Source: Geobacter sulfurreducens PCA (GTDB taxonomy: Bacteria; Desulfobacterota; Desulfuromonadia; Geobacterales; Geobacteraceae). Taken from it: 32,000 bases of DNA. The translations under genes and the position numbers were made by a program. The first letter of the stretch is position 1, and every line of letters begins with the position of its first letter. Where the stretch lies: contig NC_002939.5 of the NCBI RefSeq assembly GCF_000007985.2, positions 810,001-842,000 on the forward strand, written 5' to 3'. The notes beneath the pieces were generated by a model. That model was not told where the DNA came from and did not search any database. It saw nothing but the letters and a program-made list of their open reading frames with translations. Shown here piece after piece: positions 5,367 through 10,628 of this stretch.

Positions 5367-8086
5367 GCCCCCCTAGTCTTCACCCCTCCACTGACCGGCA
5401 TAAGGCCACGACGGCTAGCGAGAAGAGCGGCGTCCTTTGGGTTGGCGCTACGGCGGAGGCCCTTTAGAACACTCTGTTGCGTCTCGGGCGTCCAGAAGAT
5501 CCGCAGACGCTCACGTGCACGAGTTACGGCTGTGTAGAAGATGCTGTGTGTAATGTCGTCTTCATTGGCATCGGTGATTACGATCTTGACGGAATCGTAC
5601 TCGAGGCCCTGCGCCTTGTGGATCGATACGGCATAGGCCACTTGGAATGGTACACTGGAGTTCAGTGAGTCGTCGTCCTCATCGCTGGTGTCATCGTACT
5701 CGTAGACGGAGAAGCGCACTGTCGAGTCAACCACCCATTCGAGCTCATCACACTCGACATCGAACTCGCTGAGCGGTCGATCGAGCTTGACGTCGAATTG
5801 AATCCGACCAGGGGCGTGGGCGATGCCGACGATCCAGCCCTTTAGGTTGTTATAGATCACCGGGCGGAACCGCTCGGTCTCGTGGAATAGGACAGGGTCA
5901 CCGATCTTATATGTGGACTCGCGCCAAGTGGTCGCAGTACCGGGGTTGCTGCTCTGCAGAAATCGATTGATGTTGTTGATACCATAGAGGCCGTCGTAGT
6001 TCAGGCACAGGATAATCTCGTCCTGCCCTTGGGTCTCAAACAGCGTCTTGTCGAGTGCGGTCGAGTACCCGTTGCGGGCCATGACCTCGGCGATGTCGTC
6101 TTCGATGGCTCGAACCTTATTCCAGAAGCCCAAGAGTGAGTCATTCTTGGTTCTGAAGGGCGTCGTCAGCTCGAACACCGACGTGCTCGGGATGAATGAA
6201 CGAATGATTCCGAACCAGTTGCCGAACTCGATCGACTCGATCTGGTAGACGTCGCCGACGAGTACGAGCAGCTTGAAGGAGGTCTTCTCCAGTACCTTGA
6301 TCAAGTCTGCGTTGCTCACGGTGCTGCACTCGTCGATGATGAGGAGGTCGTAAACCGGATCGGTGGTTCTCCTGGAGATCTGGCTGCTGATTGTTCGGAA
6401 GGCCGAGTTCTGCGCGGTTACCTTGCGTTTGAGGTTGTCGATCGCTGGGTGAGTGTGCGCGAGGAAGAGTTTCGCTTTGTCGTTAAAGTAGTGCGCGATG
6501 TGGTCCACCATCGTTGACTTGCCAGTGCCAGCCGCCCCGTAGATCAGGGCGACACGCGACTGGCTGAACAACTGTTTGAGTGCATCCTTCTTCACCTGGT
6601 CGTCAATGCTACGAGATGTCTCATCGAGCCAGCGCTCGACGGCTTGGGTGTAGCCGGCGATTCCGGCTGATGCATGCTCCTGGAGCTTCTCAACGATGGA
6701 GACTGTGTCGTTCTCATACCCGGAGATGAAGACGTGCCCCTTGTCGAGCACGAGCCGGCGCTCCGGATGCTTGTAGTAGAGCTTGTTGTTGTAAGTGGAG
6801 ATCAAGCCGTTGACGTTTCCGAATTTCTCGAGCTCAACAACTGGCGTGTAGAGAATTCCGTGACGCTCCACATTGTTCCTCACGCATCGAGCGAGCAGTT
6901 CGTGGTTCCGATCGGTTGCATCGAGGCTCTCGACGAGGTCCCAGTACCTGGGGTTGTGCCCCGGTAGCGAGGTACAGAACGGCATGGTGTCAAAGGGGAT
7001 GCAGCCGAACTGAAGTTTCATGTCGGAGAGAAGGTAACAGCCGCCCTGGAGGTGCTGCGGCTTGAGGATCTGGTTATGCATTCGTAGCATGAGATAGCGG
7101 AGTACGTTGTGACCCGGAGCGGCTGATCTCACAATGTGGCGCACTTCATCCAGTACGGGAAAGACCTGTGATTTGGTGGCGTCACCCGTACCTGCTGTCC
7201 TTACCTGTGTGTACTTATCGTCGGGCATATCAACCAGGTCGAGCAGATTGACGGAACTCTTAGTCAGCCCACGCATCAGGTAGCGATACTCCACCGAGCT
7301 GGTCCGCACGTCTAAGGTGATGCCCAGAAGGCGCGCGAAGTTTTTAAATTCGCACGGGCGGATAGAGACCTCCCACTCGCGGACGATTGTGATCGGCATT
7401 GTCTGGCCGAGCACTTCGATTGAGTCGCGCTGGAGCGTCAACATGGCCGCGTACTTGTCAGTCATATCGATGTAGCTGAAGGCAATGATACGGTCGAACT
7501 TGTTCACCTTGTCGACGGCGCGGTAGAAGGTGACTTCGTAGTATATGCGCCCGCCGACGAAAAACGGGCGCGTTTTGTGGATGTAATACCTGTCGCGGAT
7601 GCTGCTGCTTGGTCGAGATGAACGGACTGCCTCAATTCTTGCTGCTATCTTTTCTTGGTACTCCTGCAGCGACGGATCGAGGTCGACCGGGAAGGCCTCG
7701 AGGTTCGCCAGCACCGTAACTCCACAGTTGTCTTGAAGCAAGCTACGGACGCGGTGGAGGTACTCGTAGTACTTAAGCATCAAACGCTCGGAAGCGTCCC
7801 CGTCCAGGGTGTAGTGGGACACACTTTTCTGAATCAGTTTATGGAACTTGCCGAGGAAGTTGAATCTTGCCTCACTCTTGACGAAGGCGAGTGCCGGTTC
7901 TACTGCGGCGTAGTTGAATTCGGCATCGGGTGAGCCCGTGTGGAGACGGACCGCAACTCCCTCGACTAGGTTCCGGAGCTGTGCGAGAACATTTTGGGAG
8001 AGCAATGCCCGCTGGTCAGCGAGCGATTCGATATTCCGACAGATCGCCTCGTCAGCGCTCTGGATCTGCCTGCTGACCGTAGTCAT
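5363..8086 (-). CDS. 907-aa protein: unassigned N-terminal region of about 500 aa fused to a RecD/Dda/Pif1-like SF1 DNA helicase core
   Basis: Motifs seen: Walker A IYGAAGTGKST (aa 515-525), Walker B LLIIDECS (581-588), LVLVGDVYQ, TTPFRT, an SH3-like insert (IGDPVLF...YNNLKGWIVGI), SIHKAQGLEYDSV and YTAVTRARERL. Together these are the RecD2/Dda-type motif set. Residues 1-500 show no P-loop, HUH/3H relaxase, NERD or nuclease motif I can recognise. GGGAG lies 10 nt upstream of the ATG. Confidence 0.85.
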   Translation of the reverse strand: MTTVSRQIQSADEAICRNIESLADQRALLSQNVLAQLRNLVEGVAVRLHTGSPDAEFNYAAVEPALAFVKSEARFNFLGKFHKLIQKSVSHYTLDGDASERLMLKYYEYLHRVRSLLQDNCGVTVLANLEAFPVDLDPSLQEYQEKIAARIEAVRSSRPSSSIRDRYYIHKTRPFFVGGRIYYEVTFYRAVDKVNKFDRIIAFSYIDMTDKYAAMLTLQRDSIEVLGQTMPITIVREWEVSIRPCEFKNFARLLGITLDVRTSSVEYRYLMRGLTKSSVNLLDLVDMPDDKYTQVRTAGTGDATKSQVFPVLDEVRHIVRSAAPGHNVLRYLMLRMHNQILKPQHLQGGCYLLSDMKLQFGCIPFDTMPFCTSLPGHNPRYWDLVESLDATDRNHELLARCVRNNVERHGILYTPVVELEKFGNVNGLISTYNNKLYYKHPERRLVLDKGHVFISGYENDTVSIVEKLQEHASAGIAGYTQAVERWLDETSRSIDDQVKKDALKQLFSQSRVALIYGAAGTGKSTMVDHIAHYFNDKAKLFLAHTHPAIDNLKRKVTAQNSAFRTISSQISRRTTDPVYDLLIIDECSTVSNADLIKVLEKTSFKLLVLVGDVYQIESIEFGNWFGIIRSFIPSTSVFELTTPFRTKNDSLLGFWNKVRAIEDDIAEVMARNGYSTALDKTLFETQGQDEIILCLNYDGLYGINNINRFLQSSNPGTATTWRESTYKIGDPVLFHETERFRPVIYNNLKGWIVGIAHAPGRIQFDVKLDRPLSEFDVECDELEWVVDSTVRFSVYEYDDTSDEDDDSLNSSVPFQVAYAVSIHKAQGLEYDSVKIVITDANEDDITHSIFYTAVTRARERLRIFWTPETQQSVLKGLRRSANPKDAALLASRRGLMPVSGGVKTRGA

Positions 8087-8273
8087 TAACTATCAACTCC
8101 CGCTAGATTAAAGAAAGTCATGTGTGTCCCCTTCTTGCTCATGGCTATTCTGCTGTTATCTCATCTTAAAGCGGCTAATGAATATTATGAGAATATATTT
8201 AACTCAACTGAATTGAATAAATTGTCTCCGGAATTACGTCCGAGCTTCCGATGCGCTGTTAGCAAAGTTTCAA

Positions 8274-8477
8274 TCAGTCCGGTGTTGGGCCACGCCCGAT
8301 GAAACTTAGATAGCTTGGCCACTGATACTCCTCCGGCCCCGCAACAATCCCTGCCCTGATGATGTACGGGGAAAGCTCGCATATTCGGCAGCCTCGACGA
8401 GTATCGTTTCTACCTCCTCTGGAAGAGATGTCCCGCCCGTTTCCGCTTGACGTTGAAGTGGGTGGTGTAGGCGCCGT
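8274..8477 (-). pseudogene. decayed C-terminal remnant of a Y1 (IS200-like / REP-associated, COG1943-type) transposase
   Basis: Three frames together read GAYTTHFNVKRKRAGHLFQRR*, then ETILVEAAEYA, then ELSPYIIRAGIVAGPEEYQWPSYLSFIG. This matches the family pattern ...GHLFQGRYK..ilve...Y...L.rYIHlNPVRAGiv..PeeY.WSSY. It has at least 2 frameshifts, an in-frame stop, a small deletion and no N-terminal half. It begins directly at the stop codon of the 8478-9080 gene and is GC-rich like the host. Confidence 0.6.
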
Positions 8478-9080
8478 TTACCCTTGTTGACTTGTTTCCA
8501 GTTCTCGGCGTAGCTCTTCCAAATCGGTAATCGTTTTTTCAAGGTCAGGGAAGGCACACGCTAATTTTGTTGAACTAACTGCGGCAAGTGCCAAATAAGC
8601 AACCAAGAGCATCATTAAAAAAAGGCACACTTCTCTAAATGCAATAGAATTATCTGAAAGAAGAGCACATCCATATAAAAAAATAAGGACAATAGGGACT
8701 ATTGGGACAAAAGTGAGTTCATGCTTAATGTATTTACTGTACCGTTGCGCTTGAATTTCTTGCGAGGCAAGATCTTTGAGGTGATCATCTTCAGCATAGC
8801 CCTGTTTTAAACCAATTTGCATTAAATCACGCAAAATATTATCCATTCTATCCCACGATTTTAAGTAATCGAGGACTTCCTTGAACATGTATTGCCTAAA
8901 TAGCAGGCCTGATATTGCTAGAACACCGCCAAGAAATGTAACAAATCCTGTATCTAACTTTGAAGTGTCCCCCAGCAAAGTAAATACAGTTACCCAGGCA
9001 CCCAATGTTGTGCTAGCAATTAAGGCTGCAAAAATCAAATCGCGCATAACCGATACATTAGGTTCAGATTGCGTTGCCAT
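8478..9080 (-). CDS. hypothetical integral membrane protein, four predicted TM helices (candidate membrane effector)
   Basis: Hydrophobic helices: LIFAALIASTTLGAWVTVFTLL, FVTFLGGVLAISGLLF, FVPIVPIVLIFLYGCALL and VCLFLMMLLVAYLALAAV. A charged linker of about 55 aa separates the two TM pairs. The charged C-terminal tail reads DLEKTITDLEELRRELE. The ATG directly follows the TAA of the upstream gene (TAAATG). Confidence 0.65.
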   Translation of the reverse strand: MATQSEPNVSVMRDLIFAALIASTTLGAWVTVFTLLGDTSKLDTGFVTFLGGVLAISGLLFRQYMFKEVLDYLKSWDRMDNILRDLMQIGLKQGYAEDDHLKDLASQEIQAQRYSKYIKHELTFVPIVPIVLIFLYGCALLSDNSIAFREVCLFLMMLLVAYLALAAVSSTKLACAFPDLEKTITDLEELRRELETSQQG

Positions 9081-9974
9081 TTACTGATACCGCTGGCCAA
9101 AATAATCCTCAAGATAACCGGTAATCTTTTCGGATGTAGTTTTAGGGTTTGTAAGTTGCTCTTCTGTAAGCGGCACGATAGCCGTTTCTGCCTCAGGCTT
9201 ATGTCGACTGCTCCAGTTAGTGCCAATTCCAGACCTAGTGCCCCTGGCTCTCATGCGTAATCTTCTATCAGCTACGGCTTGATCTAGTTCCTGGACATCA
9301 GTTTCTTCAAGTTTTGGTTCATTAGCAATCAGATCTACAGTTTCGGAACGAAGAGACTTTCGGAAGGAATTCGCTGTATCCCGAATTGACTGCACCAAGC
9401 TCCCAGGCCTTGCAGGCAAATTAGGGCCTACATAATGAACGATTATTCTATTGAGATGGTCAAGACTGTTAAACCACTCAACGAACGAGCCAATCTTGGC
9501 GATGGGCTCCACCTCCAGCACATAGTGTTGGTCCATTTCAAGCTTTCGTAGTGCCTCGTCGAGTAGATCGTAAAAGACTGTTGCGAAAGCTTTTGCTGAT
9601 CTAGCAAACCTTGAAACATCTGAGGCGCGATGCACGACAATAATTTGTAGCGGGATATGAACTACGACGGGAGTGAAAAATCTCGGCTCTTTTGCATCCT
9701 CAAGCACACCTGGTCGTGGCTCCTCTGCTATACGCCCAAGAGGAGGACGAACGGTTAAATCAGCAGCAAGAACGTCTGGGCGTACTTTTATCAAGTCTGC
9801 AAGGCCCCATGTTCGGTCGCCACTTATTGAACGTATGCTCGATGGGATCAATTCTAAAGACTGACGCAACACCTCATCTCTCGGTAGTGGCTGAGACAGC
9901 AGGTTAAGTTGTCCAGGATGTCGCTCTTGGTACTGAATCTGTAGCATCCACCATCGGGTTTCATTGTCAGGCAT
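9081..9974 (-). CDS. hypothetical soluble protein (297 aa from ATG 9974; the ORF extends to 10013)
   Basis: Long ORF in AT-rich DNA. ATG 9974 is preceded by GGAGG with a 4-nt spacer, so I prefer it to the 10013 start. No catalytic motif is recognisable by eye: no GS..DxD, P-loop, TIR or PD-(D/E)xK. Translationally coupled to the four-TM gene. Confidence 0.6.
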   Translation of the reverse strand: MPDNETRWWMLQIQYQERHPGQLNLLSQPLPRDEVLRQSLELIPSSIRSISGDRTWGLADLIKVRPDVLAADLTVRPPLGRIAEEPRPGVLEDAKEPRFFTPVVVHIPLQIIVVHRASDVSRFARSAKAFATVFYDLLDEALRKLEMDQHYVLEVEPIAKIGSFVEWFNSLDHLNRIIVHYVGPNLPARPGSLVQSIRDTANSFRKSLRSETVDLIANEPKLEETDVQELDQAVADRRLRMRARGTRSGIGTNWSSRHKPEAETAIVPLTEEQLTNPKTTSEKITGYLEDYFGQRYQ

Positions 9975-10110
9975 ACTTCCTCCGCTACTATTTTCAGATT
10001 TCTGCATCCACAACGATCACCACACCAACGGGCCGGGAGAACAGCGGCTTGGCCGCTGCTTCTTCCTGGTTATACCGATGATGAACCCGGTCCTTGCGAT
10101 TGCGGAGCGG

Positions 10111-10404
10111 CTAAAGCTGTTCAAAGATGGTGGTCATATGCTCGTCACCTCGCTTGTATCCGGGTCTTGAGGTTGAAAATGAATCTTCCAATATTTGTAA
10201 GCCGATCATTTTGGAAACGGTCATTAAGTGCCACGGCGTTGCGTCGGGCCTTACTCCGCTTCCGCCGGTTTGGTAGCACCTGATTGCCTCTTTGCCTGTT
10301 CTTGTCAGCCCGTAGCAATGAGGCTCAACAATTCTCGGATGTCCATCATAGGTAAAGGCGAGGATTCTTCTTTCTCTGATTGCTTGGCAGATTGCAGGAT
10401 TCAT
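10111..10404 (-). CDS. stand-alone WYL-like domain protein (97 aa, no HTH)
   Basis: RILAFTYDGHPRIVEPHCYG...EAIRCYQ...TPWHLMTVSKMIGLQILEDSF follows the WYL-domain pattern (l.f.Y...R.veP..l...WyL...ri..l..l...F). AAGGAG lies 9 nt upstream of the ATG. Confidence 0.55.
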   Translation of the reverse strand: MNPAICQAIRERRILAFTYDGHPRIVEPHCYGLTRTGKEAIRCYQTGGSGVRPDATPWHLMTVSKMIGLQILEDSFSTSRPGYKRGDEHMTTIFEQL

Positions 10405-10499
10405 GTTTAGTTTCTCCTTTTCCTTTGACTTTGATGGTATAGCGGGGATGGCTTTGACAACAACTCAAACTCATTAACCCACCACAAGTATACGCCCCG

Positions 10500-10528
10500 A
10501 CTATCCCTGCGCGCACGAGCGCAGTCAA
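10500..10528 (-). promoter_or_regulatory. possible sigma-70 promoter for the WYL-led operon, with a small inverted repeat in the spacer
   Basis: Minus strand reads TTGACT (10528-10523), a 17-nt spacer, then GATAGT (10505-10500). The spacer contains CTGCGC-N6-GCGCAG. Pattern match only. Confidence 0.3.
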
Positions 10529-10573
10529 GTCAGGAAAATCCTGATACAACGGGGGATTCGGGGGAGAGGACAC

Positions 10574-10605
10574 AAAAAAGGGGGAACCGGTACACCGGCT
10601 CCCCC
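10574..10605 (-). terminator. rho-independent terminator of the chemoreceptor gene
   Basis: Minus strand reads GGGGGAGCCGG-TGTA-CCGGTTCCCCC followed by TTTTTT, 24 nt after the MCP stop. Confidence 0.85.
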
Positions 10606-10628
10606 TGTGGTGCGTTATGAGGGCAGGA

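Follow-up and report, generated by a model that had tools for sequence, protein, structure and literature searches.

Here we describe a two-gene module on the minus strand (9974..8478) of a 32,000-nucleotide (nt) window of the Geobacter sulfurreducens PCA genome (NC_002939.5, positions 810,001 to 842,000; the window is the whole stretch that was analysed, and all coordinates below count from its first letter). The module encodes a soluble protein of 297 amino acids (aa), followed by a 200-aa protein with four transmembrane (TM) helices, hereafter the 4TM protein. That the two genes form a strictly co-inherited, translationally coupled pair is genuine, and the pair lives in defence islands, mobile elements and prophage immunity regions. 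Its function we infer to be phage exclusion, and with a probability of roughly 0.55 we regard it as a RexA/RexB-type (CarolAnn/DUF4747) module for phage exclusion or abortive infection, one that is too divergent to be recognised by sequence. An initial annotation, made from the letters of the window, had instead proposed a three-gene module consisting of a WYL-like gene, a spacer and the pair, and the three open reading frames (ORFs) are present as described there, co-directional and all on the minus strand:

10111..10404, minus strand: 97-aa WYL-like gene (ORF), outside the conserved module
9975..10110, minus strand: spacer of 136 nt, with a GC hairpin at 10058..10042
9979..9983, minus strand: GGAGG ribosome-binding site (RBS) of the 297-aa gene, read from the sequence, 4 nt before the ATG
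9081..9974, minus strand: 297-aa gene, upstream member of the pair (ORF, TAA stop at 9083..9081 included)
8478..9080, minus strand: 200-aa 4TM gene, downstream member of the pair (ORF, ATG at 9080)

The strong RBS and the direct contact between the genes, both pointed out in that annotation, hold up, as the TAA of the 297-aa gene directly abuts the ATG of the 200-aa gene. A longer start for the 297-aa ORF is possible at a TTG (10013), but the alignment of the family favours the ATG instead. Among 5.8 billion clusters, 54 hold homologues of the 297-aa protein, none of them with a Pfam domain, and an exhaustive hidden Markov model (HMM) profile search of 1.84 billion representatives returned only 20 proteins at E <= 1e-3. 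From 185,579 species genomes we obtained 12 loci with a homologue, hosted by Geobacteraceae, Desulfuromonadaceae, Syntrophaceae, Desulfurivibrionaceae, Desulfatitalea, Dissulfurispiraceae and Gracilibacteria, and metagenomes contributed another 21. Loci of the pair span Desulfobacterota, Nitrospirota, bacteria of the candidate phyla radiation (CPR) and prophages. The 4TM protein belongs to a family of similar size (52 homologue clusters), and invariant residues are found in both families. Of the 29 distinct full-length loci whose sequence continues for at least 300 nt downstream, 28 have a 4TM homologue directly 3' of the 297-type gene, abutting or overlapping it. Three divergent relatives retrieved by profile search, two of which reside in prophages, also carry a homologous 4TM gene directly downstream (E 7.5e-37, 2.7e-30 and 6.6e-12), and all-against-all clustering of the neighbouring ORFs gave no third gene that is universal. 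At the DNA level, similarity to nine related loci begins at window positions 9986-9964, near the RBS of the 297-aa gene, and ends at 8492-8515 in the five related loci where the end of the pair is reached, which means that the shared DNA covers only the two ORFs.

A homologue of the WYL-like gene occurs in none of the approximately 35 other loci that carry a 297-aa gene, and it is missing even where the 297-aa protein is 82-88 % identical (L008, L009, L020 and L021). Its own family, 18 clusters of constant length, turns up in unrelated contexts with neither a 297-aa nor a 4TM neighbour (L041, L042 and L043), namely beside a ParE toxin-antitoxin pair, beside an integrase and an SMC_N/AAA_21 protein of 1100 aa that has a 330-aa partner, and among metabolic genes. 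Because the WYL-like gene accompanies the pair in the window only, DNA similarity is confined to the pair, and the 97-aa homologues are placed elsewhere, the conserved unit is two genes and not three. The pair of the proposed module therefore stands, while the WYL-like gene and the spacer do not belong to it, and the expected co-occurrence of all three genes across genomes is not found. One could still envisage that all three genes act as a system, the stand-alone WYL protein serving as a ligand-sensing regulator or component of the pair: the genes are co-directional, the sole sigma-70-like promoter found lies 5' of the WYL-like gene, no canonical terminator separates the three genes, and the 97-aa family is genuinely WYL-like and occurs in variable, mobile-element contexts. 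However, with the homologue absent from every other pair locus, DNA homology stopping at the RBS of the 297-aa gene, the 97-aa homologues occurring elsewhere without the pair, and no DNA-binding domain in the protein, we give this explanation very little chance, and as a conserved unit the three-gene system is refuted by co-occurrence and by the limits of DNA homology.

As for the 97-aa protein itself, its description as following the WYL pattern without a helix-turn-helix (HTH) is right in that the length leaves no room for an HTH and the family is WYL-like (a Pfam WYL match in 14 of 18 members, best E 4.7e-4), but the match of the window protein is weak (Pfam WYL E 0.1, PADLOC WYL E 0.0045). 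A profile search of solved structures returned nothing for this family. Its suggested likeness to WYL regulators of defence loci such as BrxR and CapW is not borne out: those combine a winged HTH with a WYL domain and are conserved upstream of the systems they regulate, whereas the 97-aa protein has a weak WYL match only, no HTH, and no counterpart at other pair loci. Since the sole sigma-70-like promoter found lies 5' of the WYL-like gene, local co-transcription with the pair is possible, though confined to this lineage. The gene is a G. sulfurreducens-specific neighbour and at most a local regulator, and the WYL-only family may represent a small regulator that stands alone, or a gene of mobile elements with an anti-defence-like role. 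The spacer is 136 nt long and structured, as had been claimed, and it folds somewhat more stably than its shuffled versions (z = -2.67), of which 1 in 200 reached the same level. Its GC hairpin has no U-tract, it matches nothing in Rfam, and it lies outside the DNA shared with relatives, with no counterpart in other pair loci. A riboswitch or non-coding RNA was considered for the spacer and rejected, given the lack of an Rfam match and of conservation in relatives.

So what kind of protein is the 297-aa partner? Neither it nor the 4TM protein matches a model in Pfam, NCBIfam, PADLOC or PHROGs, the NCBI name for the exact 297-aa protein is hypothetical protein of Geobacter sulfurreducens, and a profile search of solved structures gave nothing for its family. 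The earlier label of an orphan protein is supported in that no library tested annotates either protein. An AlphaFold2 model built with 43 homologues has a predicted local distance difference test score (pLDDT) of 85 and a predicted template-modelling score (pTM) of 0.75. When this model was compared with the PDB using Foldseek, the sole significant match was E. coli RdgC (2owl_A, E 6e-4, probability 1.0), at a TM-score of only 0.40 and a sequence identity of about 10 %. RdgC is a toroidal, double-stranded DNA-binding modulator of recombination that inhibits RecA and is encoded by a stand-alone housekeeping gene. The 297-aa protein resembles it in being of similar size (approximately 300 aa) and in having it as its best solved structural match; unlike RdgC, it has no match to PF04381 and is encoded by a gene that is coupled to a 4TM gene in mobile contexts, such that the likeness exists at the level of the fold only. 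Ranking lower than RdgC are chains of the human constitutive centromere-associated network, 7qoo_L and 7xho_L, along with CENP-N. Judged by the chain letter, 7qoo_L and 7xho_L are probably CENP-L, and we take CENP-L and CENP-N to be the human counterparts of yeast IML3 and CHL4. For the crystal structure of lambda RexA, it is RdgC and the yeast proteins IML3 and CHL4 that have been reported as structural relatives (Adams et al. 2024, PMC11077077). Against BFVD, the best matches are uncharacterised phage proteins (E 1e-12, TM-score 0.57-0.60), followed by phage RdgC-like proteins. By its predicted fold, the 297-aa protein would be a soluble, RdgC-like protein of the RexA class, and probably one that binds DNA.

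Five of these BFVD proteins, A0A8S5MSR5, A0A8S5S8L2, A0A8S5PCY0, A0A8S5QGP5 and A0A6J5Q1Z2, are uncharacterised proteins of 277-322 aa from uncultured tailed phages, and they match the 297-aa model at E 1e-12 to 2e-8, closer than RdgC does. Furthermore, some sequences retain only the first ~30-130 residues of the 297-aa protein and come without a 4TM gene (L019 9977-10376, L039 537-938, L040 243-395, and protein P0139). In L019 and L039 this N-terminal fragment measures about 100 residues, and in L019 it is frameshifted. These N-terminal-only sequences may have arisen by decay of complete copies, or they may represent the N-terminal domain as a short form in its own right.

For the 4TM protein, hydropathy gives the two-plus-two arrangement of TM helices that had been read from the sequence before (residues ~14-37, 42-61, 120-141 and 145-177), with a charged helical linker at residues 62-118 that contains 9 K+R and 10 D+E. 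The AlphaFold model, although of moderate confidence (pLDDT 67), is entirely helical, and the tail, earlier called coiled-coil-like, is a C-terminal amphipathic helix. Conservation within the family is highest in TM2 and the juxtamembrane helix that follows it, and in the segment leading into TM3. Traces of SLATT domains are faint and far below cut-offs, with SLATT_5 in 5 of 33 members (best E 0.033) and SLATT_4 in 2, and the PADLOC '2TM effector' model matches the 4TM protein at E 0.042. We refer to it as a putative RexB-like inner-membrane effector, and the suggestion of the initial annotation that a soluble protein coupled to a small membrane partner resembles the layout of abortive-infection modules is reasonable. 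Separately, the YefM antitoxin model is matched (E 8e-10) by one member of the 4TM family. This member is probably P0090, a 250-aa protein extended at its C-terminus, and the match suggests a fusion with, or read-through into, an adjacent antitoxin gene.

The genomic contexts of the relatives fall on two sides. In two distant relatives, both in prophages, the pair directly follows the immunity repressor. One of these (L047) is arranged as HTH_3 repressor, 294-aa gene and 192-aa gene, divergent from a Mu-type transposase; in the other (L049), an HTH_3 repressor, a 303-aa gene and a 197-aa gene come after an integrase and an HTH_17 gene, with an opposed small HTH gene and lysis genes beyond. This order matches that of lambda cI-rexA-rexB and of CarolAnn 45-44-43. 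The window and most of the close relatives do not have this repressor-linked placement, and sit in restriction-modification (RM) operons or defence islands instead. Two metagenome-assembled genomes of Geobacteraceae/Desulfuromonadaceae carry the pair inside a type I RM operon, in the orders hsdM-hsdS-PDC-M43A-PDC-M43B-pair-five small genes-hsdR (L008, 5200-16807) and hsdM-hsdS-gene-pair-DUF6236-Sel1-hsdR (L009, 6237-17086), and defence cassettes appear to use the hsd operon there as a landing pad. Elsewhere, PD-Lambda-2_B (E 3e-144) and PDC-S62 lie shortly downstream of the pair (L024), and further neighbours include Mrr, type I or type III-like RM genes, AbiEii, an HD-domain protein, ParE/Phd and integrases. 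In addition, a homologous gene for a large N6_N4 methyltransferase lies directly 3' of the pair in three unrelated loci (L004 8902-12204, L013 2040-4322 and L044 6627-8915), with a ResIII helicase gene further downstream in L004 and L044 and an 894-aa gene without annotation after the methyltransferase in L013; this suggests a recurrent link of the pair to a type III-like RM or BREX-like module.

Placement behind a repressor also raises the question whether the pair serves the mobile element rather than immunity, for instance in the lysogeny-lysis decision, in recombination or in replication, with the membrane protein as an anchor or regulator. Lambda RexA has a RexB-independent role in the bistable switch of the phage, and the authors of that work question exclusion as its primary function (PMC11077077). 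RdgC, moreover, modulates recombination, and two relatives of the pair come straight after the repressor of a prophage. The strict coupling to a membrane partner with effector-type hints nevertheless fits immunity better, and a role in a lysogeny switch makes no sense for most copies, which reside in type I RM operons or defence islands where no repressor is near. We consider a non-immunity role distinctly improbable.

Lambda RexAB is among the closest of the systems that could be compared. RexA is a dimeric, non-specific DNA binder, and its partner RexB is an inner-membrane protein with four TM helices (PMC11077077). As in the pair, the gene for a soluble protein of ~280-300 aa directly precedes that for a small inner-membrane protein with four TM helices and a central loop in the cytoplasm, the predicted fold of the 297-aa protein falls within the RdgC/IML3/CHL4 neighbourhood reported for RexA, whose own RdgC-like fold has two domains, and the two distant prophage relatives come right after an immunity repressor. 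Among other members of this type, the P. putida pair PP_5643/PP_5644 (RexABpp) is an experimentally validated RexAB-type system in which the 4TM partner does not resemble RexB in sequence (PMC12894663). A clamp on DNA has been reported for RexApp, and overexpression of that soluble partner is reported to lead to 4TM-dependent membrane permeabilisation and growth arrest. The Sbash and CarolAnn papers describe DUF4747 as common to lambda RexA, Sbash gp30 and CarolAnn gp44, the assignment for gp44 having originally been a weak HHpred match. In a 2026 study, 'DUF4747/CarolAnn' figures among the recognised immune operons, often placed behind an RM operon, and association with RM loci is seen for our pair as well. 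CarolAnn gp44/gp43, Sbash gp30/gp31 and RexABpp further share with the pair the organisation into two overlapping or abutting genes, in which remote recognition is possible for the soluble partner only, the 4TM partner being unique in sequence. P0142, which matches the profile of the 297-aa family at E 4.5e-4 and is its most remote candidate relative, has a precomputed, weak mark for Pfam DUF4747, and is followed by an overlapping multi-TM gene whose product, not homologous to the 4TM family, matches the Pfam S_4TM effector domain at E 1e-5. Whereas the initial annotation could not map the pair onto a system it could name, the RdgC fold match, the repressor-linked prophage placement and the weak DUF4747 mark on P0142 together lead us to propose the RexAB/CarolAnn (DUF4747) type.

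We must however take into account a number of observations that weigh against this assignment. Using hmmscan, neither protein of the pair matches the models of RexA (PF15969), RexB (PF15968), RdgC (PF04381) or DUF4747 (PF15931), and the same goes for DUF4868, KwaA and KwaB. All three RexA family models (PF15969, PADLOC RexA and PHROG 12654) fail to match the window protein or 10 divergent relatives, while the lambda RexA control matches each of them, and lambda RexA and RexB match their own models strongly. With hhalign, the 297-aa family reaches a probability of 0.2-0.35 % against lambda RexA and 0.7 % against a profile of the CarolAnn, Sbash and Sejanus proteins (gp44, gp30 and gp46), and comparisons with lambda RexB and actinophage RexB-like profiles stay below 1 %. 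The hhalign negatives say little, however, because the control with such thin profiles, lambda RexA against CarolAnn/Sbash/Sejanus, also fails (0.14 %) and so cannot link even accepted RexA homologues. A sequence link to lambda RexA/RexB or to the actinophage RexA- and RexB-like proteins was thus rejected, with hmmscan and hhalign negative throughout and hhalign of little power. The DUF4747 mark on P0142 was not reproduced by hmmscan either, in which the validated CarolAnn gp44 itself also has no match. Structurally, the TM-score of the RdgC match is low, lambda RexA (PDB 8TWQ) is not among the best 50 Foldseek matches in the PDB or in BFVD, and the 4TM model, at its pLDDT of 67, finds no meaningful match in the PDB (best E 0.11). 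Moreover, no 297-aa homologue was found in the phage genomes of IMG/VR and INPHARED, nor in PLSDB, and INPHARED holds no homologue of P0130 or P0142 either.

The pair also differs from these systems in its build and distribution. Relative to lambda RexAB, there is no detectable sequence similarity for either partner, the 4TM protein is longer than RexB (200 versus 144 aa) and includes a ~55-residue helical linker as well as a C-terminal helix, and most copies of the pair are chromosomal defence-island cassettes rather than prophage genes. The 297-aa protein is shorter than its counterparts in CarolAnn and Sbash (297 versus 337-372 aa), and unlike CarolAnn, Sbash and RexABpp the pair is found in Desulfobacterota, Nitrospirota and CPR bacteria. 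The family is best classed as a newcomer, unrecognisable by sequence, to a known type of system, and not as something categorically new.

By analogy with lambda RexAB, Sbash, CarolAnn and P. putida RexABpp, a mechanism for a Rex-type pair can be sketched. The 297-aa RdgC-fold protein would probably dimerise around or along DNA, like RdgC and RexA, and would sense a phage-specific DNA or protein-DNA intermediate. It could then activate its co-translated 4TM partner, probably through the conserved cytoplasmic juxtamembrane helices of the latter, upon which the 4TM protein would depolarise or permeabilise the membrane and the infection would be aborted.

An alternative to such membrane damage is a logic like that of Kiwa, in which KwaA, with four TM helices, is combined with KwaB, a membrane-held dimer that binds DNA without sequence specificity (PMC11785009). 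Applied to the pair, the 4TM protein would sense a phage-induced perturbation of the membrane or the entry of DNA, and the RdgC-fold protein would clamp incoming phage DNA and block its replication or late transcription, with the cell surviving. Kiwa does contain the same ingredients, proteins with the RdgC fold are DNA binders and not known activators, and the DNA-binding ability of RexA did not correlate with its exclusion activity (PMC11077077). The conserved cytoplasmic juxtamembrane segments of the 4TM protein would, in addition, suit a docking platform. Membership of Kiwa in the strict sense, a resemblance that the initial annotation had raised pending verification of DUF4868, was nonetheless rejected and fails on every feature tested. 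What the two have in common is a 4TM protein next to a soluble, likely DNA-binding protein of ~300 aa, in similar sizes. The pair, however, has no match to Pfam DUF4868 or to PADLOC KwaA or KwaB, no KwaB entry is present among the best 50 Foldseek matches in the PDB, and the gene order is reversed, kwaA preceding kwaB whereas the membrane gene is downstream here. KwaB consists of a Rossmann-like domain and DUF4868, and the loop and C-terminus of KwaA form a cytoplasmic six-stranded beta-barrel (PMC11785009), in contrast to an RdgC-like 297-aa protein and an all-helical 4TM model. With no link to KwaA/KwaB in sequence or fold, and with the repressor-linked prophage placement and the S_4TM/SLATT hints pointing to a membrane effector, we judge the Kiwa-like logic to be unlikely, even if it is the main rival in our ranking.

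On a broader scale, the 297-aa family could be an intermediate between RdgC and RexA. Modules that combine a DNA-clamp protein with a 4TM membrane protein (Rex, CarolAnn/DUF4747, our pair and, by convergence, Kiwa) might then constitute one ancient and widespread class of immunity, mobile between prophage immunity regions and chromosomal, RM-embedded defence islands and largely missed by sequence tools. We offer this tentatively, and with more doubt than belief.

The surroundings of the pair in the window are consistent with the AT-rich island DNA that had been noted there, the GC content being 42-49 % over 8001-10500 against 63-70 % in the flanks. Further features of the minus strand are as follows:

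10579..10606, minus strand: strong intrinsic terminator with a 12-bp stem, 9 GC pairs and a T-run, 3' of a 745-aa chemoreceptor-like gene
10528..10500, minus strand: the sigma-70-like promoter mentioned above, the sole one found on this strand upstream of the three genes
5363-8086, minus strand: PDC-S53 SF1B/RecD-like helicase, 907 aa (full-length PADLOC match, E 0, 1390 bits)

The terminator coincides with a jump in GC content from ~65 % to ~45 % and forms one edge of the low-GC island (approximately 1500-10580); the window contains no tRNA gene. PDC-S53, a candidate single-gene system in PADLOC, is the next gene downstream, about 390 nt past the 4TM gene, and it adjoins the pair in the window only. 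Further into the island, overlapping ORFs of 120 and 296 aa (3788-5037, minus strand) resemble the orfA/orfB transposase genes of the IS3 family, as judged by translation alone. The product of a 188-aa ORF (3204..2638, minus strand) contains a CxxC pair resembling a zinc ribbon at its N-terminus, and its C-terminal part weakly matches the PADLOC models of Csx1 and CARF-HEPN (E 0.025-0.045). This ORF is bracketed by a 55-nt direct repeat that is 80 % identical (2501-2555 and 3283-3337).

RexAB was the first abortive-infection system to be described, and work on its mechanism has been hampered, in part because few of its homologues can be recognised. We found no description of the 297-aa/4TM family in the literature. 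Being compact, conserved internally and confidently modelled, the family provides an independent set in which to look for the common features of Rex-type sensors and their membrane partners. It would extend Rex-type modules to Desulfobacterota, Nitrospirota and CPR bacteria, and into type I RM operons. Such modules probably escape counting in part, as none of PADLOC, Pfam and PHROGs recognises the family. For G. sulfurreducens, a model electroactive organism, the pair is a candidate determinant of phage resistance, situated beside the PDC-S53 helicase.

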